From Patescibacteria group bacterium (GTDB lineage: Bacteria > Patescibacteriota > UBA1384 > JBAYJO01), in contig JBAYJO010000001.1 in assembly GCA_041665085.1 (NCBI GenBank), forward strand, positions 40,671 through 104,670: DNA of 64,000 bases, in the 5' to 3' direction. The notes under the pieces were generated by a model. It did no database searches. It was not told where the DNA came from and saw only the letters and a list, made by a program, of their open reading frames with translations. A program made the translations under genes and the position numbers. Shown here piece by piece: positions 2,889 to 52,908 of the stretch; the first letter of the stretch is position 1; each line of letters opens with the position of its first letter.

Positions 2889-3678
2889 AGAAAACTTATT
2901 ACATTTAAATAACTTAAGAAAGTTTATTGGTTATGAAATTTTTCGCGAAGCGATGAATTCTGAAACTAAGCTTCAAATTTTAGATACGCCGCCAAGCGGG
3001 AGGGTTTTGGTTTTAGCACCTCATCCAGATGATGATGTGATAGGGTGCGGAGGTACGATTAAAAAACATATTGATAATGGCGATAGTGTAAAAGTTGTTT
3101 TTTTAACAGATGGGTCAGGCGGAGTTGCTAAGAAGCGCCATATTACCACTGTTAAAGAGAGAAAGGATTTAACTGGCGAAAGAGAAAGCGAAGCCAAAAC
3201 TGCGGCATTGATTCTTGGAGTAACAGAAACGGCTTTTTGGAGATATCATGATGGTTCCCTTCTTTTAAATAATACTTCTATGAAGTTGCTTGATACCTTA
3301 TTTTCTGATTTTAAACCTAATATTATTTATGCGCCTTCTTTTTTAGATCCTCATCCGGATCATTTTGAAACAGCAAAAATATTAGCAGCATTCTTAGAAA
3401 AAAAGAATAATTTTACTGGAACAATTTTTAGCTATGAAGTGTGGTCGCCAATCTACGCGAATAGGCTTGTGAGGCTCGACGATGTGGCAGAATTTAAAAA
3501 ACAAGCCTTGCTTGCACATAAGTCCCAAATTGAATCACGGAGCTATGAGCAGGCGATTATGGGTCTTGCAAAATATCGTGCCGGAATGCATGATGCAGGG
3601 GAATATGCAGAAGCATTTTTTGCTTGCAATATGAAGTTGTATGTTCAGCTTTTTAATTTATTGAGTTTAAAGAAATAA
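2857..3678 (+). CDS. PIG-L/LmbE family N-acetylglucosaminyl deacetylase
   Basis: N-terminal LAPHPDDDVIGCGGT motif diagnostic of the LmbE/PIG-L fold. Overlaps the upstream GT, so likely the same operon. Confidence 0.7.
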   Translation: MQVLMNLKKIKENLLHLNNLRKFIGYEIFREAMNSETKLQILDTPPSGRVLVLAPHPDDDVIGCGGTIKKHIDNGDSVKVVFLTDGSGGVAKKRHITTVKERKDLTGERESEAKTAALILGVTETAFWRYHDGSLLLNNTSMKLLDTLFSDFKPNIIYAPSFLDPHPDHFETAKILAAFLEKKNNFTGTIFSYEVWSPIYANRLVRLDDVAEFKKQALLAHKSQIESRSYEQAIMGLAKYRAGMHDAGEYAEAFFACNMKLYVQLFNLLSLKK

Positions 3679-5652: not shown

Positions 5653-6558
5653 ATGGAAAATGAGCTTGGGATAGTTAATAGTCGTGAAATTGAATCTTTG
5701 GAAAAAGTAAGGTTGGAAAGAATTAAGCAGAATCTTGAAGTAGTATCAGATATTGAAAGTTTGTCTGGTGAGGAAGATAAAATTAGACAATATCTTCAAA
5801 GTAAAGCATTAGAGTTTGGGATTGAGACAGATATTGATAGAGCAGGAAATGTATGGTTTTTGTCTGATAGTCCTGAAGGAGAAGTGTTGTTAAATGCTCA
5901 TATGGATAAAGTTGGTGGTACTTCGCGAGCTATTGAATCTAATGGAAAAATTAATGGAAGGCTGGATAATTCTCTTGGAATTAGTGTTATTTTAGGTTTA
6001 CTACAAGAGGAAATTCGACCTTCAGTTGTATTCACAGTTGAAGAAGAATCAGAGCGTGAAAAAATTTCTGAAAGTGGAGAAAGAAGCTTTGTGAAAAGAG
6101 ATCTAAGAGAAGGAAAATATAATTTTGGTGCTAGAACTGCGGCCGAGGAAATTTATGAAGGAAAATACAAAAAACCAAAACTTGCAATTACTGTCGATGT
6201 TTCAGCTGCCGGAATGCTTGGGAACGGCCCGTTGGTTTACATGAGCTCATCTGTGTTCCGTTTTCCTAATGAAGGAGTTAAATTTATTTCCAAATTGGTA
6301 TCTCAAAATAAGCTCCATGCGCAATTTTTAAATGGACCGGCAAACGATTCGATTGAGTTTAGCTTTTTGAGAAAAAGCGGAACACTTGCTATTGAAATTC
6401 CAGTTGAAAATCTTCATACTGATAGCGAAAGATCTGATGTGGCAGATATTAAAGAGGCAGCTGAATTATTAAGTTTAGTTATTAAAAATCATGATATGAT
6501 TCCAGAAATGATTGATGAACCGACGCATAGAGAGTTTTCTGACATAACATCAATTTAG
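5653..6558 (+). CDS. M42-family (FrvX-like) peptidase-related protein
   Basis: Pattern SGEED...DRAGNVW...LLNAHMDKVG resembles the M42 aminopeptidase N-terminus. Confidence 0.45.
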   Translation: MENELGIVNSREIESLEKVRLERIKQNLEVVSDIESLSGEEDKIRQYLQSKALEFGIETDIDRAGNVWFLSDSPEGEVLLNAHMDKVGGTSRAIESNGKINGRLDNSLGISVILGLLQEEIRPSVVFTVEEESEREKISESGERSFVKRDLREGKYNFGARTAAEEIYEGKYKKPKLAITVDVSAAGMLGNGPLVYMSSSVFRFPNEGVKFISKLVSQNKLHAQFLNGPANDSIEFSFLRKSGTLAIEIPVENLHTDSERSDVADIKEAAELLSLVIKNHDMIPEMIDEPTHREFSDITSI

Positions 6559-7443: not shown

Positions 7444-8252
7444 TGATGAAAATTGCTCTTAAGCTATTAAAAGATAATAAGTTATCACTTATAGTTTATA
7501 CTATTGCATCTCTTTTGTTTGCTTTGATGTATGTTTCGATGTTTCCTTCAATGGCAAAACAATCAGAACAATTTATGGAAGCATTTAAAAATTATCCAAA
7601 GGATATGATGGAAGCATTCGGAATTGAAATTTCACAGCTTTCATTTTCAAATGTGCAATCTTTCTTGGCAATGGAAAATTTTAGTTTGATGTGGCCAATT
7701 ATGGTTTTTGCAATGTCGATTTCGCTAGCTTCAAGTGCGATTGCGGGTGACATAGAAAAAGGGACGATGTCAATTTTTCTAAGTCAGCCAATATCTCGAG
7801 TTAAATTATATTATTCTAAGGTTTTATCAGGCTTCTTGTTTATTTCAATATTTGTTGTTTTGTCTGTCTTTTTAATTCCGATTATTATTGCTTTACAAAA
7901 TATTGATTTTAAATTTAATGGATTTGTGATGATGGCAATTATTGGTTGGTTTTTTAGTATGGCGATTTATGGGGTTATGATGTTTTTATCTTCAATTTTT
8001 TCGGAGAAGGGCAAAGTGATGTTTATGGGTGTTGGACTTATAGTTTTGATGTATGCAATTAATGTTGTGGCAAACCTAAAGGATAGCTTAGATAAATTAA
8101 AATATCTTTCCTTTTTTCATTACTTTGACCAACAAAATGCGCTTGTGAATGCAAAAATTGATTGGCATTCAATTGTTGTTTTTACTTTGGTTGCAGTGGT
8201 TTGCATTATTTCGGGATCAGTAATTTTTAAAAAGAGAGATATTATTGTTTAG
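7443..8252 (+). CDS. ABC-2 type transporter permease
   Basis: Six predicted TM segments. Start overlaps the ATPase stop (ATGA). Confidence 0.6.
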   Translation: MMKIALKLLKDNKLSLIVYTIASLLFALMYVSMFPSMAKQSEQFMEAFKNYPKDMMEAFGIEISQLSFSNVQSFLAMENFSLMWPIMVFAMSISLASSAIAGDIEKGTMSIFLSQPISRVKLYYSKVLSGFLFISIFVVLSVFLIPIIIALQNIDFKFNGFVMMAIIGWFFSMAIYGVMMFLSSIFSEKGKVMFMGVGLIVLMYAINVVANLKDSLDKLKYLSFFHYFDQQNALVNAKIDWHSIVVFTLVAVVCIISGSVIFKKRDIIV

Positions 8253-9381: not shown

Positions 9382-9456
9382 GGCGCCATCGTATAGAGGT
9401 TAGTACGCCGCCCTCTCACGGCGGTAACAGGGGTTCGATTCCCCTTGGCGCTGCCA
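9382..9456 (+). tRNA. tRNA-Glu (anticodon CUC)
   Basis: Acceptor GGCGCCA/TGGCGCT, anticodon stem CCGCC/GGCGG with loop CTCTCAC, T-arm AGGGG-TTCGATT-CCCCT, encoded CCA. Confidence 0.8.
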
Positions 9457-9538
9457 ACAGGTTAAAAATAGTTCATTTCTTCATAGTTTCGAACTTTTTT
9501 AGTTATCATGTTAAAATAAAGAAAAATAAGGAGATGAA

Positions 9539-9853
9539 ATGATAGAAAAAGAGGAGATTAAAAATCGTTTGATAAAAAAATATAATTATCCTGATGAAGG
9601 AGCAGAACTTGTAGCATCAAAACTACTAGGCTTAGATGAAAAATTAGTGACAGAATTTGTTAAATGGTGGGAAACTGATCAACTGCCTATGATTGAAATA
9701 GAAGGATATTCGATAGAAAAATTCATTAGTGAATATGATTCTACACCACCAGCTGCATTTCTAAATATGAACTGGTTGATTAAAAATCCAGAGGAAGCAA
9801 AAAAGGCCTTTAGCAAAGGTTATGATAATGTAATTGTAAAGAAAAATGAGTGA
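9539..9853 (+). CDS. Hypothetical protein (islet A)
   Basis: RBS AAGGAG upstream. No recognised motif. Confidence 0.5.
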   Translation: MIEKEEIKNRLIKKYNYPDEGAELVASKLLGLDEKLVTEFVKWWETDQLPMIEIEGYSIEKFISEYDSTPPAAFLNMNWLIKNPEEAKKAFSKGYDNVIVKKNE

Positions 9854-10703
9854 ATTACTTGGTTCTGCATTTAAAAACGAAACAGTTCAGCCAGTGAGTA
9901 ATTTCGTTAGAATTACAGAAGAAATAGACCAACTTTTGTCGGAAGATACACCTGATAATCAGAAAGCATTAGAGGCTTTTGTTCTAAAACGTACTTCAGA
10001 ATTGACGGCAACTGCACCAGAAACTGAATATATTACATACAAAAAAGAAAAGCCACACAATGGTTTCATATCACCTAAAACTGAAGTTAAAGGCAAAATT
10101 ATGTATGATGGATTTCATTTAGATGATCCTGATTTATATCCTGCATTACTAAATGGATTAAAAGAATTAAAGTCAACTCCTGGATGGAAAGAAATGAGCA
10201 TAAAAGCTTTAGCAGTTCCAGCCGTAAACTATGCTGTATCAAAGTACTTTGGTAGTTATAAAATATCAGATGAACAAGAAAAACAAAATGCAGCTCATTA
10301 TATGAATCTTGGAGCTCCTTGTTCTATTAAAGAAATGAAGGGTAAAGGTATTGCTGTTTGTGCCGAAAAAGCAGCTGCCGCTCAAAATCTATTAACCTTT
10401 TTGGGGCTTGATTCAGAACTAGCAATGGCGGATTGCAAGCTTGATCCAAATCAAGAAGAAGGACCACATGCTTATAATATTGTTACGGGCCCAAATGGTC
10501 ATTTTATTTTTGATCCTACAAATCCTATTGTAAATGATAGTGCAGAGGGGCAACCGAATTATTTGCCAGCCACATATAAAATTTCAGATGAGCAATATGA
10601 ATCGCTGCAAAACCATCAAGCTGTTGAAGTAGCTCACACAAATACTAAGATTGTTGATGGGGAACAAGAAGCAGAAACAAATGCTAGAGTTTATAATGCT
10701 TAA
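9846..10703 (+). CDS. Hypothetical protein with possible transglutaminase-like Cys-His-Asp core
   Basis: GIAVCAEKAAAAQNLL ... GPHAYNIV ... FIFDPT resembles the transglutaminase-like cysteine peptidase core. Confidence 0.4.
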   Translation: MSELLGSAFKNETVQPVSNFVRITEEIDQLLSEDTPDNQKALEAFVLKRTSELTATAPETEYITYKKEKPHNGFISPKTEVKGKIMYDGFHLDDPDLYPALLNGLKELKSTPGWKEMSIKALAVPAVNYAVSKYFGSYKISDEQEKQNAAHYMNLGAPCSIKEMKGKGIAVCAEKAAAAQNLLTFLGLDSELAMADCKLDPNQEEGPHAYNIVTGPNGHFIFDPTNPIVNDSAEGQPNYLPATYKISDEQYESLQNHQAVEVAHTNTKIVDGEQEAETNARVYNA

Positions 10704-10762
10704 TTTTAAAAATTAGCTAAACCAAAATCTGGCAAAATAATATTATTTTCCTGCATGAAATA

Positions 10763-10835
10763 GATTCGAACGTCGTTTCCCTTGGCGCTGCCAAAAAAAT
10801 CACGAACTTTTGTTCGCGATTTTTTTGTAGTGCGG
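10763..10835 (+). repeat. Partial copy of the tRNA-Glu 3' end (att-like) plus a hairpin terminator
   Basis: CCCTTGGCGCTGCCA (10782-10796) repeats the tRNA 3' end at 9442-9456. Followed by ATCACGAAC-TTTT-GTTCGCGAT and a T7 run. Confidence 0.6.
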
Positions 10836-10946
10836 GGATGAGATTTTTGTATGGTGGACTATGCAAAACTTGATTATACGACCTATAGTGTGTTAATATT
10901 TTGGCAATTAGGATTAGCGAAAGTCCTGATCAAGGAGGAGGCAACG

Positions 10947-11453
10947 ATGATCACACGAATAATGCTGTCGGTCGTCATCGTTATACTGGCAGTGTGTTTC
11001 CTGCCAGTTCCAGTGAGGAGTCAGACTGTCTCCCTCTGGACTGAATCCAGTAGTGACTATACCACATACAATTGGGCGGTAGATTGGTATGGTTTGACTT
11101 TCTTCTCCGTACTGATACCGGAGAATGCTCACTTCGCAAGTTTGTATTGCCCGTGTGGGTGGGCATTCGATCTCTCTAGATATGGGAACATATGGGAAAG
11201 ATATTTGGAGTCCCCACCCTCTGATTATATGTGGGCGTATTATTGTCGGACTGCGCCCGGTACACCTCCCAGTGTATTGACATTCGCACTGACAACCAGT
11301 GCGTATTACGAGACCGGAATTGCCCTGTATGGTGTTGCAAATGGTTCTGGCACATCGTACGGCCCAACAATGGGGCCAATTGTGCCGGAACTGCCGTCTA
11401 TGATAGTGTTGATGCTAGGAGCTCTCGGTATTGTCGCTCGTAGGTGGCATTAG
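10947..11453 (+). CDS. Secreted protein with PEP-CTERM-like sorting signal, GC-rich
   Basis: RBS AAGGAGGAGG before ATG 10947. N-terminal signal peptide. C-terminus VPELPSMIVLMLGALGIVARRWH (PE-P motif, TM helix, basic tail). Confidence 0.5.
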   Translation: MITRIMLSVVIVILAVCFLPVPVRSQTVSLWTESSSDYTTYNWAVDWYGLTFFSVLIPENAHFASLYCPCGWAFDLSRYGNIWERYLESPPSDYMWAYYCRTAPGTPPSVLTFALTTSAYYETGIALYGVANGSGTSYGPTMGPIVPELPSMIVLMLGALGIVARRWH

Positions 11454-11667
11454 CCAGAGTTTGTCTTTTCTCGGCCTGGCCCTTACTCGGGGCTAGGCCA
11501 TATTTTATTTCATTTTACGCTTATTAATATTAAATTACGAATTATCAGGTTATTTGAGAACCATTCCTTGATTTTAATTAGATAATCTTCAAAAGTTAAT
11601 TCTAGTTGATTTTGGTTAATCAAATATTTATTATACTCTTAAATGATAAAGGATTAATTTTGTAGTT

Positions 11668-12660
11668 ATGAATCATACATTTAGGACGCTAAAATGGAAA
11701 CGCCATTCTACAGCAATAGCAAGAAAGCGTTTAAGACGACAGAGAAGAAAAAAAGGTCAGACACTTTTTAATTCTCCGAAGTATTTTAAGAAAATTTCTG
11801 CCCCTGCTTATTTTAGTATGATTAAAAATCCTGAAGGTATGGTTAGATTTTATCATGATTTTGAAAACGTTGTTAGCACAGGTGCGGGTGTTGATTTTGA
11901 TTTATCTCAAATAAAAGTGATGACGGTAGATGCTGTATTGTATACTCTTTATTTCTTTGATTATTTGAAATCTAAAAGAGTGTATTATTTTGTCAGAGGA
12001 AATGAGCCTAAGGATCAAGAATGCAAAAGGATTTTTCAAGAATCAGGGTTTTATAAATATGTTCAATCTTCTCAACTTAACAAAACGAGTTATAATATAT
12101 TTCCAATAGAATCAGGAACTTCTGTAGATCCTACCTTGGCTGAAAAAATAATTGATTTTACACGAGATAGATTACTTTATCCGAAATCGAAAAAAATAGA
12201 AGGTGTTTTTATAACTTTAGTTGAGTGTATGACAAATACTATTCAATGGGCTTATGAAAAAAATTATTCCCTTAATAAATGGTGGGTGGCAGCTTATTAT
12301 GACAAAAACCAAAACAAGATCTTTTATATTTTTTTAGACAACGGGCAAGGAATACCATCAACTGTGAGTAAAAGATTTCCAGAACGTGTCGCAGCGATAT
12401 TTAAAAAGATCACAAAGCAGCAACTCGATACAACTTTAATTAAATCTGCATTAAAAGGAGAATTTAGAACTCGAACTAAACAATCAAGTAGAGGAAAAGG
12501 ACTACCACAGATTTATAGTTTTGCTAAAGAGGGAAAGATATCTGATTTGCGAATAATGTCCAACAGAGGTTATATTGATACTGTGGATCCTAATAATTGT
12601 GAGGAGCTAAGCCGCAAATTCATAGGTACTCTGTTTAGTTGGAGTTACTCAACTAAATGA
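11668..12660 (+). CDS. GHKL-type (histidine kinase-like) ATPase protein without HisKA domain
   Basis: N-box-like VECMTNTIQWA, G1 box FLDNGQGIP, G2 box SRGKGLPQI. Basic N-terminal tail. Confidence 0.55.
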   Translation: MNHTFRTLKWKRHSTAIARKRLRRQRRKKGQTLFNSPKYFKKISAPAYFSMIKNPEGMVRFYHDFENVVSTGAGVDFDLSQIKVMTVDAVLYTLYFFDYLKSKRVYYFVRGNEPKDQECKRIFQESGFYKYVQSSQLNKTSYNIFPIESGTSVDPTLAEKIIDFTRDRLLYPKSKKIEGVFITLVECMTNTIQWAYEKNYSLNKWWVAAYYDKNQNKIFYIFLDNGQGIPSTVSKRFPERVAAIFKKITKQQLDTTLIKSALKGEFRTRTKQSSRGKGLPQIYSFAKEGKISDLRIMSNRGYIDTVDPNNCEELSRKFIGTLFSWSYSTK

Positions 12661-12689
12661 TCTATAATTTAAATTGATAAGGAGCCAAA

Positions 12690-12995
12690 ATGGATATATA
12701 TATAAAAAATTTTTCTACTGCCCTTGGCGGCAGATTTAAAAAAGAAGGTAATTTTTCGGGAGAAGAGTTTAGAGAAAAATATTTAGAACCTTTATTCAAT
12801 GGGAAAAAGACCGATCAGATCAATATCTATCTTGATGGTACCGAAGGATACCCAAGTTCTTTTTTAGAAGAAGCATTTGGCGGATTGGTTCGTTTATTAA
12901 ATGATAAGGAAATTGTAAAAAAACGATTGCGCTTGGTTACAAGTGATTCAATGTTGGAAAAAGAAATATTAAATTATATTGAAAATGCCCTATGA
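12690..12995 (+). CDS. Small STAS-like (DUF4325-like) protein
   Basis: 101 aa. The IYLDGTEGYPSSFLEEAFGGLV core matches my recollection of the DUF4325/STAS-like family that partners GHKL ATPases. Confidence 0.4.
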   Translation: MDIYIKNFSTALGGRFKKEGNFSGEEFREKYLEPLFNGKKTDQINIYLDGTEGYPSSFLEEAFGGLVRLLNDKEIVKKRLRLVTSDSMLEKEILNYIENAL

Positions 12996-13567
12996 AAATT
13001 TGGTTTAAAGAAAAGTATATTTTCATTACTCTGTTTATCCCCCTTTTGGTGGGAATAATAATTGTGTATTTAAAATGGGCAGATATTAGAGATGATTTTT
13101 TTAAAATTAATTTCGCTGATGTGTTCCAAGTCATTGCCACATGGATTATTGCTTTATTTGTAACCTCATATGTCGGTGAAAAAACAGGTAACAGCAATAA
13201 GAGGAAAGAAATTATTTTAAAAATCTTGGATGAATTTAGAGATAGGATATCCGAGATGTTTAATCTATCCACTACTTATATGGAAAATTCTGACAAAAGT
13301 CTCGAGAAATCAATCTTAGCCTGCAGTGAAAAAGCTAATTATCAGCTTAATAGTCTTATAGAATTAAAAAAGAATGGGATTTTAAATTGTTTAAATTTTG
13401 GCGATGATCTTGAAAATTGTTGTTTAAAGTTTAAAATTGCCGTTACTGAATCACCTTTTCGTACTAATAATGTTGTATATGATGAAACAAAAAAGAATAA
13501 AGTCTATACTAGTTTTTATGAGTTAATAAAAAAAATTGATACTATTAGGTATAGACTTTATAAGTAA
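12992..13567 (+). CDS. Membrane protein (two N-terminal TM helices plus cytoplasmic domain)
   Basis: Start overlaps the previous stop (ATGA), so translationally coupled. No known motif. Confidence 0.5.
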   Translation: MKIWFKEKYIFITLFIPLLVGIIIVYLKWADIRDDFFKINFADVFQVIATWIIALFVTSYVGEKTGNSNKRKEIILKILDEFRDRISEMFNLSTTYMENSDKSLEKSILACSEKANYQLNSLIELKKNGILNCLNFGDDLENCCLKFKIAVTESPFRTNNVVYDETKKNKVYTSFYELIKKIDTIRYRLYK

Positions 13568-13598
13568 ATTTATTTACACATACCCAGAAAGAAACAAT

Positions 13599-13763
13599 AT
13601 GGCCAACACAAAAGGAAAAGTTACATTTAGAGCTAATAAAACCATTACCAAACCAGTAAAGGTTGAATTTACAAATCGTAGGGGAGAAAGAGTGTCTTTT
13701 ACAACACATGAGAAAGTGATTAAGCCTGTAAAAGTTGAATTTTATGTTAGAAGAAAAAAATAA
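13599..13763 (+). CDS. Small basic protein with internal KPVKVEF repeat, putative antitoxin partner of the PIN protein
   Basis: ATG at 13599. Motif TKPVKVEF...IKPVKVEF duplicated. Overlaps the PIN gene start. Confidence 0.35.
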   Translation: MANTKGKVTFRANKTITKPVKVEFTNRRGERVSFTTHEKVIKPVKVEFYVRRKK

Positions 13764-14388
13764 AGTTTTTTATATCGATACTAATATAGCTTTGGATTGT
13801 GCTACTAATAGAAATATACATACTATTCTTTTAATTGAGAGGATTAAAGAGCAGAATTGGAAATGTGTTAGCTCAGCTTTTCTCGCCATGGAAATGGCTG
13901 ATTATAAAAAAGATAGTCTTTTTATTACAGATAGAATTATAAATAAAAAATGGGAAACAAGAAAAGTGCTAAGGGAAGTATATAAAAAAACCTTGCGAGA
14001 GAGCGATTATGAAGAATTATCAGAGTGGCTAAAAGAATTTAATCAAAGATACAAAATTGAGATGTATGACTTTTTAAGTGAGGCTAAAGGTTGGGATTTG
14101 GCACAACAAATTAGTAATAAATATTCAATTACTGCTGCAGACTCTATTCATTTAGCATCGGCTGTGTTAGGATCATTGAGCCAAGGGATTGAAATTTTTA
14201 TAACAGAAGATAAAGATTTAAAACAAATAACTTATCAGATAGTAAAGGATTTAAAAGTTGAAAATCCAGAGCTAAGTCTTCAACCTATGAATGTTGAAGA
14301 AGTGAAGAAAAGTTATTTCCAACCATTATCTATTCAAGTTGATAAAAAAGTGGACGTAGCAGAAAGGACAGTGTCTGAAAGATGGTGA
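13735..14388 (+). CDS. PIN-domain (VapC-like) nuclease
   Basis: Acidic residues in FYIDTNIALD, AADSIHLASAV and FITEDKDL match the PIN catalytic motifs. Confidence 0.7.
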   Translation: MNFMLEEKNKVFYIDTNIALDCATNRNIHTILLIERIKEQNWKCVSSAFLAMEMADYKKDSLFITDRIINKKWETRKVLREVYKKTLRESDYEELSEWLKEFNQRYKIEMYDFLSEAKGWDLAQQISNKYSITAADSIHLASAVLGSLSQGIEIFITEDKDLKQITYQIVKDLKVENPELSLQPMNVEEVKKSYFQPLSIQVDKKVDVAERTVSERW

Positions 14389-14500
14389 TTAAATATAGTT
14401 CTACTAAAGGATGGTAGTATTCAAGCTAAGTCCCAACTCTAGAAAATTCAGCTTCAGAGAAGATACTCCGGAGTTGTTTTAATTCATTGATCAGTTGATT

Positions 14501-14560
14501 CCAAAAAAAATTTGGCTGTCTGTCAAAAAAATCACAAACTTTTGTTCGTGATTTTTTTTG
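14501..14560 (+). repeat. Second copy of the att-like tRNA-fragment plus hairpin repeat
   Basis: TTGGCTGTCTGTCAAAAAAATCACAAACTTTTGTTCGTGATTTTTTTTG is near-identical to 10783-10835. Confidence 0.6.
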
Positions 14561-14656
14561 TGTTATAGCATTTATTTGCTATAGTTTATTTGTATTACAG
14601 GTGGAAGGTTGGAAGTTTCTGGATTTTTTTAATTAATAGTTTCAGGAGGTGTCAAA

Positions 14657-15442
14657 ATGAGAGAATTAGTGGTTGCTGTTAACAATGAAAATATAAATTT
14701 GAAACCCTTTGAAACTATAAAGGTGATAAAAGAAGCTGGATTTCAGAATGTATTTATCTATTGGCTTAACAAAAAATGGGAATGTTCTCAAGAAAAGCAG
14801 CTGAAGTATATAAGAGATTTAGGATTAAATGTAATTTTTGCTCATCTTGGTTATCAAGAAATAAATTCATTGTGGGAAACGGGAGAAAAAGGTCAATTAT
14901 TGGCTGAAAGATATAAAAATGATTTAGAAGTTTGCAAGAAGAATGATATCTCAATGGTTGTAATGCACTTGACTAGTAAAACCATAGCTCCGAAATACGG
15001 TGAAATTGGATTAAATCGAATAAGAGAGATTGTAAATTATGCAAAAGAACTTGATATTAAAGTTGCTTTTGAAAATAATAAAATTAAAGGGTATTTAGAT
15101 TATGTTTTGTCAAATATAGATCAAGACAATGTTGGCGCTTGCTTTGACTCGGGGCATTGCCATGCACATTTTGATGATGATTTTAATTTTGAATTGTTTA
15201 AAAATCGTATTTTTGCCCTACATTTGCATGATAATGATAAAACAGGAGATTTACATTTACTACCATTTGACGGAACTGTCGATTGGAATTGGTTAATAAA
15301 AAAATTGAAATATTGTAATTACAATGGTCCGGTAACATTAGAACCGCGTTATAGTGATTATTATTTAAATATGTCTCCATTAGAGTTTTATAAAAAAGGT
15401 TTTGAAATCGCAAAAGAAATATCTGATAGGTTTGCGAAGTAA
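14657..15442 (+). CDS. Sugar phosphate isomerase/epimerase (xylose isomerase-like TIM barrel)
   Basis: HLHDNDKTGDLHLLPFDGTVDW metal-binding region. Confidence 0.65.
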   Translation: MRELVVAVNNENINLKPFETIKVIKEAGFQNVFIYWLNKKWECSQEKQLKYIRDLGLNVIFAHLGYQEINSLWETGEKGQLLAERYKNDLEVCKKNDISMVVMHLTSKTIAPKYGEIGLNRIREIVNYAKELDIKVAFENNKIKGYLDYVLSNIDQDNVGACFDSGHCHAHFDDDFNFELFKNRIFALHLHDNDKTGDLHLLPFDGTVDWNWLIKKLKYCNYNGPVTLEPRYSDYYLNMSPLEFYKKGFEIAKEISDRFAK

Positions 15443-24359: not shown

Positions 24360-24704
24360 CTATAGCAATTTACGAAGTTGGTTTGCCAGCTCTGGGAGAT
24401 CTTCTTCAACAACTTTCCAAACCTCATCAACATTCACATAATCGTATTCATGGACTAAGAGATTGCGCATCCCAATTGCTTCCTTAATGGGGAGATCGGG
24501 ATTTTTTTCTCTTAAATCGGTAGATAATTTTTTTGCTGCTTCACCTAAAATTTCCAAATTTCTCATAACAGCGTCTTGTATGAGCTTAGTGTTGGCGAAT
24601 TTTATGTAATCATAACCTTTACAGTATTCAAGAATCTGATCCGTAGCATCTAGCATATCTTTAAGATAAACTTCATCTTTTTTCATATAGAACTTTCGTA
24701 TCAT
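24360..24704 (-). CDS. HepT (HEPN-domain) toxin
   Basis: R-x4-HxY motif RNLLVHEY. Confidence 0.75.
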   Translation of the reverse strand: MIRKFYMKKDEVYLKDMLDATDQILEYCKGYDYIKFANTKLIQDAVMRNLEILGEAAKKLSTDLREKNPDLPIKEAIGMRNLLVHEYDYVNVDEVWKVVEEDLPELANQLRKLL

Positions 24705-24972
24705 TCAAAATATTTTTTTTGATACTTGGTTTAATGTTTTTTCTAGAGACCAGATCGACTGGTCGACCGAGCATTTCCTCTAAATCATATTGGATGCCCC
24801 CAATTTTCATAAGTGATTTAGTTTCTTCGAAATCAACCATTATATCAATATCGCTATCATCTTTCTCTTCTCCACGAGCAAAAGAACCAAAAATTCCAAA
24901 GTAATTAATTTGGTTTTTTTGGCAGTAGTCTTGAAGCTCAATTTTATTGTCGATTAGGAGTTGTTTTTTCAT
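24673..24972 (-). CDS. MntA minimal nucleotidyltransferase antitoxin
   Basis: GSFARGE...SDIDI (GS-x9-13-DxD). Overlaps HepT by 32 nt. Confidence 0.75.
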   Translation of the reverse strand: MKKQLLIDNKIELQDYCQKNQINYFGIFGSFARGEEKDDSDIDIMVDFEETKSLMKIGGIQYDLEEMLGRPVDLVSRKNIKPSIKKNILNDTKVLYEKR

Positions 24973-50274: not shown

Positions 50275-52908
50275 ATGGCGCGAAAAGATGAAAAACTGAA
50301 TCAACTAAAATTGCCTCCTCAAAACATTGAGGCAGAAAAGAGTATTTTAGGTTCTATTCTTTTGGATAAAGATGCGATTTTGAAGATTGTTGATTTTTTA
50401 ACAGAAGATGATTTTTATTTGACCGAACATAAACTTATTTATGGTGCAATGGTTAAATTATTTGAAAAAAGATCTCCAATTGATCTGGTAACGCTATCTG
50501 ATGTTTTAGAATCTGAAAAACATTTAGACAGGGTTGGGGGCGCAGATTTTTTAAGCTCGCTTGTAAATGTGGTGCCAACAGCAGCTCATGTGATTGATTA
50601 TGCAAGAATCGTTTCAGATAAATCATCAAGGCAAAGGCTTATTTCTGCCGGTACTAAAATTGTTGAAATGGCATATAATGAAGAGATTGAAACTGCCGAG
50701 GTGATGGATAAATCAGAGCAGCAATTATTTAATGTGAGCCAAAAACAGGTTAAAGATAAATTTATTCCGATTAAAGATGTTTTAGTTGATAGTTTTAATA
50801 GATTGGATAAAATTCATAAGGAAAAAGGGACTTTAAGAGGAGTGCCATCGGGTTATAAGGATTTGGATAATTTACTTTCCGGTTTTCAGCCGTCAGATTT
50901 GTTAATTTTAGCAGCTCGTCCTTCAATGGGTAAAACATCTTTTGCTTTATCGATAGCGCAGCATGCAACAATTGATGAAAAAGTCGGAGTTGGTATTTTT
51001 TCTCTTGAAATGAGCAAGGAGCAGTTGGTTGATCGTTTGATTTGTTCTCAAGCCGGAGTTGATTCGTGGAAGCTTCGAAATGGACATTTGAGTGATGATG
51101 ATTTTAGAAATGTAGGTTATGCAATGGGGCATTTATCTGAAGCGCCTTTGTATATTGATGATTCGCCAATGCTTACAGTGTTAGATATTAGAACCAAAGC
51201 TAGAAGGTTGATGATGGAACAACCGCTTGGGTTAATTATTATTGATTATTTGCAGCTTATTTCAGGTTCATTTAAAAGTGATGGAAACAGAGTTCAAGAG
51301 ATTTCAGAGATTTCTCGAGCATTGAAAGGTTTAGCAAGAGAATTAAATGTGCCGGTGATGGCTCTTTCACAGCTTTCGCGTGCGGTTGAACATCGTGATA
51401 AAAAAGTGCCGCAGCTTTCTGATCTTCGTGAATCGGGCTGTTTAGCTGGCGATACTTTAATTTACAATGCTAAAACCGGACAAAATGAACAGATTAAAAA
51501 TTTGGTTGGAAAGGAATATGTTTGTTTGTCTCTTAATGATAAGAATAAATTAGTAAATACAAAATCTAGTAGGATTTTTTCAACTGGTAGAAAACAAATT
51601 TATGAATTAGTAATGGCTAGTGGTAAGCGAATCAAGGCGACTGCAAATCATAAGTTTTTGAAATTTTATGAGTGGGTTAGGTTAGATCGGTTGAGTGTTG
51701 GTGATTTTTTGGCGACTCCTCGGGAAATAAGATTTTCAGATTCAACTCAAGATATTTCTGATAATAAAATTATTTTATTAGCTCATTTAATTGGTGATGG
51801 CTGTTATTTGTCGCATCAACCTTTGCATTATACTAATGCTGATCCGCAATGTCTTAAAATTGTTGACGAGGTTTCTTATGATGAGTTTAAAACCAAAAAC
51901 AGATTAGTTAAGCAACAGAATTGGTTTCATTTGTATTTATCCGCACCAATTAAATTAGCACGAGGCAGAAAAAACCCTATTATAAAATGGTTAGATGAAG
52001 ATTTGAATATTTTTAATCAACGATCTGGAGAAAAAAGAATTCCAAAAATAGTTTTCTCTCTTGATAATAAAAAAGTATCTTTATTTATTAGTCATTTATT
52101 TGCAACTGATGGAGGATTAACAAAATCATCTGGAATTTGGAGGCTTCACTATGCTTCAAAAAGTAGAAGGCTGATCGAAGATTTGCAGCATTTATTGTTG
52201 AGATTTGAGATTCTTTCAAGAATTAAAGAAAATAAGAAAAAAGGATATGCAATTGTCTATGATTTAGTAATTTCGGGATCAGATAACCAGCTAAGTTTTT
52301 TGATAAATATCGGAATATTCGGAGAGAAGGAAAAAAATGTTAAACTTGCTATTGCTGAATTAAGAATGATTAATTCTAATACAAATGTTGATATTATACC
52401 ATCTGAAGTGTGGCAGAAAATTAAAGATGGCTTTATGAAACTAAATTGGTCTGCGCGGAAGTTTCATCAAGAAATGAATTGGGCTTATAGCGGCACGCAA
52501 AGATATAAAAATGGCTTATCCAGAGATCGTTTGGACAAAATTGCCGAGGTTCTTAAAAATAATGAATTAAAACAAATTGCTGATTCCGATATATTTTGGG
52601 ATCAAATTAAAGAAATAAATAAGCTGGGTGTTGAAGATGTTTATGATATAACAATTCCTGATAGTCATAATTTTATTGCAAATGATATGATCGTTCATAA
52701 TTCGATTGAGCAAGATGCAGATGTAGTGATGTTTATTTACCGAGAAGATTATTACGAGGCTGATACCGAAAGAAAAGGTATTACTGATATTTTAATTAGA
52801 AAACATAGAAACGGTCCCATTGGATCAGTTGAACTATTTTTTGTACCGGAACAGATGACGTTTAGATCAATTGATAAAAAAAGATCAGTGCCGAGTGAGA
52901 TAGAATAG
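50275..52908 (+). CDS. dnaB: Replicative DNA helicase DnaB interrupted by an intein
   Basis: DnaB N- and C-terminal domains. The extein sequence resumes at SIEQDADVVMFIYRE. Confidence 0.9.
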   Translation: MARKDEKLNQLKLPPQNIEAEKSILGSILLDKDAILKIVDFLTEDDFYLTEHKLIYGAMVKLFEKRSPIDLVTLSDVLESEKHLDRVGGADFLSSLVNVVPTAAHVIDYARIVSDKSSRQRLISAGTKIVEMAYNEEIETAEVMDKSEQQLFNVSQKQVKDKFIPIKDVLVDSFNRLDKIHKEKGTLRGVPSGYKDLDNLLSGFQPSDLLILAARPSMGKTSFALSIAQHATIDEKVGVGIFSLEMSKEQLVDRLICSQAGVDSWKLRNGHLSDDDFRNVGYAMGHLSEAPLYIDDSPMLTVLDIRTKARRLMMEQPLGLIIIDYLQLISGSFKSDGNRVQEISEISRALKGLARELNVPVMALSQLSRAVEHRDKKVPQLSDLRESGCLAGDTLIYNAKTGQNEQIKNLVGKEYVCLSLNDKNKLVNTKSSRIFSTGRKQIYELVMASGKRIKATANHKFLKFYEWVRLDRLSVGDFLATPREIRFSDSTQDISDNKIILLAHLIGDGCYLSHQPLHYTNADPQCLKIVDEVSYDEFKTKNRLVKQQNWFHLYLSAPIKLARGRKNPIIKWLDEDLNIFNQRSGEKRIPKIVFSLDNKKVSLFISHLFATDGGLTKSSGIWRLHYASKSRRLIEDLQHLLLRFEILSRIKENKKKGYAIVYDLVISGSDNQLSFLINIGIFGEKEKNVKLAIAELRMINSNTNVDIIPSEVWQKIKDGFMKLNWSARKFHQEMNWAYSGTQRYKNGLSRDRLDKIAEVLKNNELKQIADSDIFWDQIKEINKLGVEDVYDITIPDSHNFIANDMIVHNSIEQDADVVMFIYREDYYEADTERKGITDILIRKHRNGPIGSVELFFVPEQMTFRSIDKKRSVPSEIE
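51439..52701 (+). mobile_element. Intein (421 aa) with LAGLIDADG homing-endonuclease domain inside DnaB
   Basis: Begins CLAGDTLI (block A) and ends VHN with a +1 Ser. LAGLIDADG motifs LLAHLIGDGCY and LFISHLFATDGGL. Confidence 0.85.

Follow-up and report, generated by a model that had tools for sequence, protein, structure and literature searches.

We examined a tRNA-Glu(CTC) gene and the genes that follow it in a window of 64,000 nt, meaning by this the whole stretch analysed (JBAYJO010000001.1, positions 40,671-104,670 of the forward strand, assembly GCA_041665085.1, Patescibacteria group bacterium). The genome belongs to an uncultured member of the Patescibacteria (Candidate Phyla Radiation, CPR), and NCBI names the proteins of the window "Patescibacteria group bacterium". 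Together with ~8 kb to the left and ~9 kb to the right, ~81 kb of the contig were read. At this locus (Table 1) the intact tRNA gene is directly adjoined on its 3' side by islet A, a 1.3-kb unit with two genes. Next comes islet B, a 3.7-kb unit that encodes a GC-rich secreted protein, a three-gene module of a GHKL-like ATPase, a DUF4325 protein and a 191-aa protein, a small open reading frame (ORF) and a PIN-domain protein; a gene of the AP_endonuc_2 family lies beyond it. A sequence-only reading had described the two islets as tandem insertions at one tRNA gene, bounded by attachment-site-like repeats that consist of a tRNA 3' fragment and a hairpin.

Table 1. Features of the tRNA-Glu(CTC) locus (window coordinates).
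Feature	Position	Strand	Remarks
tRNA-Glu(CTC)	9382-9456	+	Intact, CCA encoded; ARAGORN; Rfam tRNA 61.6 bits; core copy 1 (O) is formed by the final 15 nt, 9442-9456
Left-end segment (P') of islet A	9457-9538	+	Starts with ACAGGTT right after CCA; promoter-like site and ribosome-binding site of the first cargo gene
104-aa protein, islet A cargo gene 1	9539-9853	+	ORF; no family match
285-aa protein, islet A cargo gene 2	9846-10703	+	Predicted transglutaminase-like Cys-His-Asp fold
R-type boundary module	10711-10843	+	Arm 10711-10778 (68 nt); core copy 2 (O) 10779-10793; A-run, hairpin and T-run 10794-10827; conserved tail GTAGTGCGGGGATGAGA 10827-10843
GC-rich gene, secreted protein with PEP-CTERM-like C-terminus	10947-11453	+	ORF opens at 10851, likely start 10947; signal peptide
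330-aa GHKL-like ATPase	11668-12660	+	N-box ECMTN, G1 DNGQG and G2 GKGL, read by eye from the translation
101-aa DUF4325 (STAS-like) protein	12690-12995	+	PF14213, E 5.4e-9; phrog_5816 matched in its C-terminal part
191-aa protein, third gene of the three-gene module	12992-13567	+	34% identical (E 7e-36) to a collinear 194-aa protein in locus L051
54-aa ORF	13599-13763	+	Gene call
214-aa PIN-domain protein	13744-14388	+	PIN PF01850, E 3.2e-6
C3-type boundary module	~14436-14558	+	Arm ~14436-14511; degenerate core TTTGGCTGTCTGTCA ending at 14525; A-run, hairpin and T-run 14524-14558
AP_endonuc_2 (xylose-isomerase-like TIM barrel) gene	14657-15442	+	PF01261, E 7.8e-24

The 3' terminal 15-mer of the tRNA, CCCTTGGCGCTGCCA, occurs exactly twice in the window, in the tRNA itself and at 10779-10793, and the repeat extends to 19 nt if one mismatch is allowed. 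The sequence-only reading had noticed this recurrence, placing it 3 nt off at 10782-10796. When the tRNA 3' end is aligned locally with the 60 nt that lead up to 10793 the score is 32, against 10.3 +/- 1.8 for shuffled sequences (p <= 2e-4), which bears out that islet A is bounded by a repeated tRNA 3' end. An A-run, a hairpin and a T-run follow core copy 2, and the last 6 nt of this copy with the hairpin (10788-10826) match 14520-14558 at 36/39 positions (92%). By inspection, the hairpins of the window have the form TCACGAAC-TTTT-GTTCGCGA and similar, between A and T runs. Of the degraded recurrence that had been claimed at 14501-14560, the hairpin with its 6 adjoining nucleotides stands, while the degraded tRNA fragment is not significant on its own: the best alignment of copy 3 to the tRNA is GTT-GATTCC (p = 0.09), and for the two homologues of copy 3 in the nearest relative p is 0.21 and 0.37. 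Copy 3 keeps CTGTCA where other sites have CTGCCA, at the same offset from the A-run and hairpin that follow.

Chance falls far short of explaining the exact 15-mer or the 39-nt repeat. Three assemblies of independent origin, represented by an ENA MEGAHIT contig (147.8 kb), a JGI contig and Logan contigs (samples ERZ27249449, JGI 3300037810 and SRR6484324), are 99.95-100% identical at the locus, which excludes an assembly artefact. What might have spoken for chance similarity or an artefact at a conserved tRNA sequence is that the Logan contigs of SRR6484324 split within the tRNA, at 9423-9452 with a 30-nt overlap, and that tRNA sequences are common to co-occurring Patescibacteria. The split is explained by this 30-mer being identical in other Patescibacteria tRNA-Glu genes, and an alternative path or strain variation was rejected as its cause on the same ground; taken with the agreement of the assemblies, this makes such an origin of the repeats exceedingly improbable.

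The nearest relative of this thinly sampled lineage (nearest histidyl-tRNA synthetase (HisRS) 59% identical, the next one 48%) is represented by two contigs, k141_3190280 and k141_2608447, of the sample ERZ27297473, with the loci here called L037 and L040. Comparison with L040 revealed that the tRNA fragment and the hairpin are parts of larger modules of ~125-135 nt that come in two types, R and C3. The R module is 81% identical over 134 nt to L040 6180-6312, and its arm and core are 76% identical over 76 nt to L040 1474-1548, next to which stands a hairpin of another sequence. The C3 module is 79% identical over 125 nt, hairpin included, to L040 3385-3508. Its identity to L040 882-973 is 82% over 94 nt; in that copy the homology ends at CTGCCA before the next A and no hairpin comes after. 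Within L040 itself, a core with hairpin of 42 nt is 100% identical between 3469-3510 and 6256-6297, the arms being different. The left end of islet A is conserved as well: the ~70-75 nt that begin with ACAGGTT after the tRNA CCA, and that hold the promoter-like TTCATA-18-TATCAT at 9480-9509, are 73% identical to L040 1003-1074, there upstream of an unrelated 123-aa gene. Because this ACAGGTT-type left end precedes the 123-aa gene and an R-type arm follows it, L040 holds a 0.55-kb unit with the two ends of islet A but other cargo, namely a 123-aa membrane protein. All eight sites (3 in the window, 5 in L040) are intergenic and on one strand; the five of the relative, four with a hairpin, flank different cargo within 9 kb of an array that also includes reverse-strand genes.

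Between these copies the homology breaks, on either side of the core, at CTG[C/T]CA before an A, which is the 3' terminus of the tRNA. Such apparent independent shuffling of arm, core and hairpin (P-O-P') is the pattern that site-specific recombination at a shared core predicts, and since arms and hairpins are reshuffled with a common breakpoint at the tRNA terminus, it fits this process rather than the copying of a terminator in one piece. We therefore consider it rather likely that the segment from 9457 to ~14560, perhaps to 15442, is an accretion array that arose as elements integrated site-specifically, one after another, at the 3' end of tRNA-Glu(CTC), with units that lost or never carried recombinase genes.

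A possible, if rather unlikely, alternative is that R and C3 have a function at transcript ends (as terminator, 3'-untranslated region or small-RNA genes) and were spread in this lineage by ordinary homologous recombination, duplication or gene conversion; the tRNA-like 15-mer would then have been copied once with the tRNA's own terminator, and the islets would be operons with related terminators. Every module indeed ends in a terminator-like hairpin, that of R also by its score, with compensatory changes between the genomes, and in the predicted RNA fold of R (z = -3.7) the hairpin stem is longer and the core pairs with the conserved tail via G-U pairs, suggesting constraint at the level of RNA. 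Nevertheless, independently reshuffled arms and hairpins with breakpoints that flank the 6-nt CTGCCA are unexpected for copying as one unit, as is a left end that starts right after CCA and is conserved before unrelated cargo. The ~80% conservation of the modules equals that of coding DNA, and the hairpins are more similar within than between genomes, as gene conversion predicts. The modules are, however, absent from the other ~75 kb of the contig, where other terminators exist, and a search of them against Rfam gave no family at E <= 1. A generic terminator family had been considered when the repeats were first described; this is contradicted by the breakpoints at the tRNA CCA terminus and by the hairpin, of which no further copy was found elsewhere in the window (<=3 mismatches) or in the ~81 kb of contig, and which was not seen at many unrelated operon ends there. 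With regard to specificity for tRNA-Glu, the R and C3 modules occur in the window genome only at this gene within the ~81 kb, whereas the copies of the relative lie away from any tRNA, so that the objection foreseen in the sequence-only reading, repeats of a kind not tied to this tRNA, holds in part; the position of those copies, like the want of a recombinase in the ~81 kb, is more readily accommodated by transcript-end modules than by integration. A process specific to tRNA ends is in turn called for by exact 3'-end repeats at other Patescibacteria tRNAs.

The 25-nt 3' end of the tRNA is identical in tRNA-Glu(CTC) or tRNA-Glu(TTC) of Gracilibacteria, Peribacteria, Saccharibacteria, Berkelbacteria and Altimarinota. 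At 6 of ~13 Patescibacteria tRNA-Glu loci with readable downstream DNA (L007, L010, L015, L016, L018 and L020, from Gracilibacteria, Peribacteria and Altimarinota) there are one or two exact repeats of the 3' end, 17-24 nt long and 105-185 nt downstream, that begin in the T-loop or at its end. The resulting units of 105-185 nt are non-coding, strongly structured (z of -5.0 and -7.6 for the two that were folded) and mosaic between genomes, with no Rfam family at E <= 0.1. They open with a terminator hairpin, several then carry a GAACCC...GGGTTCG hairpin, and each closes with the exact copy of the tRNA 3' end. One unit stands behind tRNA-Glu(TTC) in one genome but behind tRNA-Glu(CTC) in a different one, and a further unit takes first place in one array and second place in a different array. 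No obvious recombinase lies beside these arrays in Gracilibacteria and Peribacteria, as judged by eye from translations in tables 11 and 25 and without a Pfam scan; a partial recombinase-like ORF occurs in a Saccharibacteria locus (L009) that has no repeats. These 3'-end repeats in six other genomes suggest that tRNA-Glu is a phylum-wide hot spot.

The window genome itself has a second attachment-like tRNA repeat on the same contig, to the left of the window. At a tRNA-Met(CAT) (L049 7737-7951, window ~-467 to -253), an exact 41-nt repeat of the 3' half, from the anticodon loop to CCA, lies 138 nt downstream after a non-coding spacer of ~97 nt. Blocks of identity that run from the T-loop or the anticodon loop to CCA are reportedly the classical attachment geometries of tRNA-targeting integrases. 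Sublocations of attachment within RNA genes are mentioned in connection with the Dehalococcoides ssrA islands (PMC3146451). A separate element of ~75 nt, GAAAAT.C..G.TATTGCCAAAATTGCTTAGCTACGGCAGACCTTTATGCGCAATTTCAGCAACA.CTCG.ATTTT, is found twice in L049, at 7640-7715 after the first tRNA-Met and at 7998-8072 after the repeat of the second.

The three-gene module of islet B has a context of its own among mobile elements. It matches phage protein families (PHROG), and the trio is collinear in another Patescibacteria genome (L051/L052; identities of 42, 59 and 34%), where its island (L051 3607-13523, on a 460-kb contig that is also in SRR6484324) adjoins the tmRNA gene. On its reverse strand the island encodes a large serine recombinase of 530 aa, the last codons of which overlap the 3' end of the tmRNA gene, and it also carries an OLD-family nuclease, DUF4238, a T4 endonuclease-IV-like gene and the 194-aa protein. 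No distal repeat of the tmRNA end of at least 11 nt was found within 13 kb.

If integration was serial, elements carrying a copy of the tRNA from T-loop to CCA would have recombined with tRNA-Glu, each integration rebuilding an intact tRNA and displacing older insertions downstream. After every event a core copy, CCCTTGGCGCTGCCA, would have stayed behind, with a right arm specific to the element on one side and the left end of the following unit on the other, and older cores would have decayed to CTG[C/T]CA. The left end of a unit would usually open with a terminator hairpin that ends tRNA transcription; a hairpin is expected after almost every core because an element that replaces the tRNA 3' end must also bring a terminator. 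Islet A would be the youngest unit, composed of the ACAGGTT left end, a two-gene cargo, the R arm and an exact core. Islet B would be older, with the PEP-CTERM-like gene, the GHKL-like/DUF4325/191-aa trio, the 54-aa ORF, the PIN gene, the C3 arm and a degenerate core. Recombinase genes might have been lost or never carried, or might act in trans. The model predicts a circular junction ...CGTCGTTTCCCTTGGCGCTGCCAACAGGTTAAAA..., an empty site of islet A ...GGTTCGATTCCCCTTGGCGCTGCCAAAAAAATCACGAAC... and a circular junction of islet A ...TTCGAACGTCGTTTCCCTTGGCGCTGCCAACAGGTTAAAAATAG.... That recombinases made the junctions, and the order of the events, are what we infer from the observed ends and repeats; any continuing mobility of the units would be conjecture.

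The other locus of the relative, L037, keeps the synteny on the right-hand side: DXS, polyprenyl synthase, NUDIX, a response regulator, HisRS, a histidine kinase, a second response regulator, a 187-aa protein and SpoU, with orthologs 57-89% identical. Its tRNA-Glu(CTC) lies 47 nt after SpoU on the same strand, and nothing of the 6 kb that adjoins SpoU in the window is found there, a point in favour of insertion; the AP_endonuc_2 gene is likewise absent. L040, in turn, has orthologs of the islet A pair together with copies of both boundary modules. The block could also be ancestral chromosome rearranged by inversion or translocation, its tRNA-like pieces being relics of an old tRNA-Glu duplication (pseudogene fragments), with no mobile elements involved. 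Most genes are native in composition, those of islet A diverge at the rate of core genes, and tRNA-Glu and SpoU are oriented differently to each other in the two genomes, so that rearrangement did happen. Yet decay of a pseudogene would not keep an exact 15-mer that ends sharply at CCA, nor would it keep two families of flanking arms ~80% alike between genomes whose core proteins are 57-89% identical; fragments limited to the stretch from T-loop to CCA in many unrelated genomes are left unexplained. We regard this origin as quite improbable.

Several observations weigh against serial integration. The orientation of tRNA-Glu relative to SpoU is opposite in L037 and the window, and no tRNA was found in the 20.9 kb read of L040, where the array elements have none for at least ~1 kb leftward and for >10 kb rightward. 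As the array of the relative is without a tRNA, one has to assume either an inversion or a second anchor, for instance tRNA-Glu(TTC); had the tRNA been inverted together with the array, both genomes would be reconciled and AP_endonuc_2 would be the most distal unit. Moreover, L037 and L040 are assigned to one genome by their shared sample and similar divergence only. The sequence-only reading had seen no integrase, and the record agrees: no recombinase Pfam family is listed for the called genes in the window or the ~8 kb and ~9 kb beside it. An empty-site junction (tRNA T-arm and 3' end with the start of the hairpin) was not found in metagenome or genome contig collections, and the three assemblies do not differ at the locus. 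The islet A pair is 72 and 78% identical in amino acids (79% in nucleotides) to that of the relative, within the 57-89% of core proteins, and homologs of its genes lie in core or ordinary chromosomal contexts in other lineages; for these two reasons the pair gives no sign of a recent transfer. The PEP-CTERM-like gene is the only one with anomalous composition, the rest of islets A and B having native GC content at third codon positions (GC3).

Two further searches were largely negative. Synteny was sought through the DJ-1 gene of the left flank in JGI metagenomes, where relatives are <=48% identical and no synteny was seen; in viral contigs there was no match to the 285-aa and 330-aa proteins or to a 25-mer and an 18-mer of the tRNA end, and a phage collection gave one weak match to the 330-aa protein and none to the 285-aa protein.

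All told, what the sequence-only reading had observed is largely confirmed, and its proposal of serial integration at one tRNA is partly supported, by the breakpoints at the tRNA terminus, the conserved modular ends, the signature at other tRNAs, the islet B trio in a recombinase-bearing island and the boundary modules that flank other cargo in the relative. Short of support are an empty site, which a nearest relative as distant as this one (HisRS 59%) did not provide, the tRNA origin of copy 3, and a recent foreign origin of islet A, the genes of which are native-like.

Tandem islands with partial tRNA or ssrA repeats, some of them without integration genes, have precedents (bioRxiv 10.1101/2020.12.28.424599; PMC3146451; PMC5704250). 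Dehalococcoides has a small genome in which ssrA islands follow one another behind a single small RNA gene, with ~20-nt direct repeats of the 3' end of the gene and the insertion point in the T-loop, and some lack an integration module and were proposed to be cis-mobilizable (PMC3146451). A conserved motif that does not align with the RNA gene stands just upstream of each of their repeats, as the R and C3 arms do here, and the tmRNA island of L051 with its reverse-strand large serine recombinase has the same layout (PMC3146451). By contrast, the anchor in the window is tRNA-Glu, the units are much smaller, none has an integration module and no variation between strains was seen. In the streptococcal families of integrative and conjugative or mobilizable elements, which accrete at tRNA genes, cis-mobilizable elements (CIMEs) keep attL and attR and have lost the genes for integration and transfer (PMC5704250). 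Islet A is like them in retaining exact cores at both ends around two cargo genes and nothing for integration or transfer. The present units are far smaller than typical CIMEs, and the viral scans turned up no related element with an integrase. Most likely they are integrase-less, CIME-like remnants; genome islands of this kind are known, and the phylum in which they are now seen has been little studied. In Prochlorococcus, which has a streamlined genome, tRNA-adjacent islands grow by successive integrations of tycheposons that push older elements inward and leave partial tRNAs and degenerate elements (bioRxiv 10.1101/2020.12.28.424599). Tycheposons have a tyrosine recombinase and replication modules, nothing of the kind, nor any sign of activity, being seen here.

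Integron arrays are composed of small cassettes on one strand between hairpin repeats that are more alike within a genome, and CALINs are clusters of attC sites without an integrase. The locus resembles them in its one-strand array, in hairpin repeats with greater similarity within than between genomes and in the lack of an adjacent recombinase. It differs in that there is no IntI, a tRNA gene rather than attI heads the array, the common core is a tRNA 3' end, and the array of the relative includes genes on the reverse strand. Reading the hairpins as attC sites was rejected by inspection: they are ordinary terminators of A-run, stem and T-run without R''-L''/L'-R' boxes or a GTTRRRY core, and the GTTCGCG and GTTTGGG in them, both next to the loop, do not fit GTTRRRY.

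More speculatively, and with a rather low likelihood in our estimate, Patescibacteria might harbour very small cassettes that form one family with conserved ends, have no integrase of their own and are mobilised in trans by a recombinase whose gene lies somewhere else. Their target would be the stretch from T-loop to CCA in tRNA-Glu and in further tRNAs, tRNA-Met for instance, and they would range from highly structured non-coding units of 105-185 nt to gene cassettes of 1-4 kb. Were this so, the tRNA gene would be a platform for cassette capture, integron-like in function and built on a tRNA attachment core. In CPR bacteria, with their tiny genomes, gene gain and shuffling are little understood. 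The locus and its counterpart in the relative point to a classical route, serial integration at a tRNA 3' end and subsequent loss of the recombinase, by which small variable regions with defence-like and surface-protein genes could be built.

The cargo of islet A is an ordinary Patescibacteria gene pair, which in the relative sits elsewhere in the genome. The 104-aa protein, without a match in Pfam, PADLOC, NCBIfam or PHROG, has a 72% identical ortholog in L040 that adjoins the ortholog of the 285-aa protein. The latter protein has a predicted transglutaminase-like fold: its AlphaFold2 model (pLDDT 88.7) has as top Foldseek matches TglA (9crn), arylamine N-acetyltransferases and transglutaminase 2, and the residues C172, H208 and D223 are invariant in 18 homologs. 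Sequence searches of the PDB with the 285-aa and 330-aa proteins gave no matches.

The gene content given for islet B by the sequence-only reading (a GC-rich PEP-CTERM-like gene, a GHKL operon and PIN) was recovered by ORFs with Pfam and PHROG matches, save that the PEP-CTERM-like protein has no Pfam match of its own. No known defence system was recognised in islet B by PADLOC or NCBIfam. The 330-aa GHKL-like protein matches phrog_3364 (E 1.5e-39) and 2514 cluster representatives at E <= 1e-3, with no match to Pfam HATPase_c. The PEP-CTERM-like gene has a GC content of 0.49 and a GC3 of 0.50, compared with a GC3 of ~0.22 in its neighbours. Its product is 26% identical (E 6e-7) to a protein of the relative that lies beside an R-type module (L040 5487-6035, reverse strand) and passes the Pfam cut-off for PEP-CTERM. 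In both genomes, of ~33% GC, a GC-rich (48-50%) gene for a secreted protein with a PEP-CTERM tail adjoins an R-type module. To our knowledge, PEP-CTERM sorting signals are not expected in CPR bacteria.

The AP_endonuc_2 gene is possibly the oldest and most distal cassette of the array. Its best homologs, an identical protein aside, are 60-71% identical, and the two with an organism name are from a metagenome-assembled genome (MAG) of Clostridia (P0025), on contigs of up to 1.7 Mb, and from this Patescibacteria MAG (P0001). This suggests a transfer from Firmicutes, the GC3 being native-like despite the homolog from Clostridia.

A few observations concern the modules and the relative. On the reverse strand, the C3 arm (window 14429-14530, L040 872-979 and L040 3376-3480) encodes a conserved C-terminal peptide, WNQLINELKQLRSIFSEAEFSRVGT followed by a stop codon, that reads in through the degenerate core; its pattern is ...WNQLINELKQLRSIFSEAE(L/F)SRV.. 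and stop, with an internal stop in one copy, and this 34-aa peptide has no Pfam match. Its geometry resembles that of the L051 recombinase, which reads through the tmRNA end, and it may be the relic of a gene that once spanned the attachment core. Three other candidates were rejected. A MicC match at 14457-14567 reaches 26.9 bits against a cut-off of 90 and rests mainly on the terminator hairpin; a small reverse-strand gene in R (49-aa ORF, 10717-10866) is 46% identical to the relative in amino acids against 81% in nucleotides and has stops in the third copy; and a sigma-54 promoter in the R arm (TGGCA...TGCAT) has, by inspection, a GG-to-GC spacing of 22 nt. In L040, a GC-rich stretch of ~140 nt (1560-1700) in an AT-rich intergenic region comes directly after an R-type hairpin and could be a structured RNA. 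In L037 14165-14713 the tRNA-Glu(CTC) is followed by DNA of ~60% GC, in which the contig ends 475 nt past the tRNA; this is either a foreign integration or a chimeric contig end. A reverse-strand fragment in it resembles by eye a formylglycine-generating-enzyme domain (GNVWEW motif). From the T-arm on, the 3' half of this tRNA departs from the phylum consensus, and two acceptor positions mismatch its own 5' strand.

Away from the tRNA locus, the Pfam matches on record include a HepT-like/nucleotidyltransferase (MNT) toxin-antitoxin pair at 24360-24972 on the reverse strand and, at 50275-52908, a DnaB helicase gene split by an intein that has a LAGLIDADG endonuclease domain.

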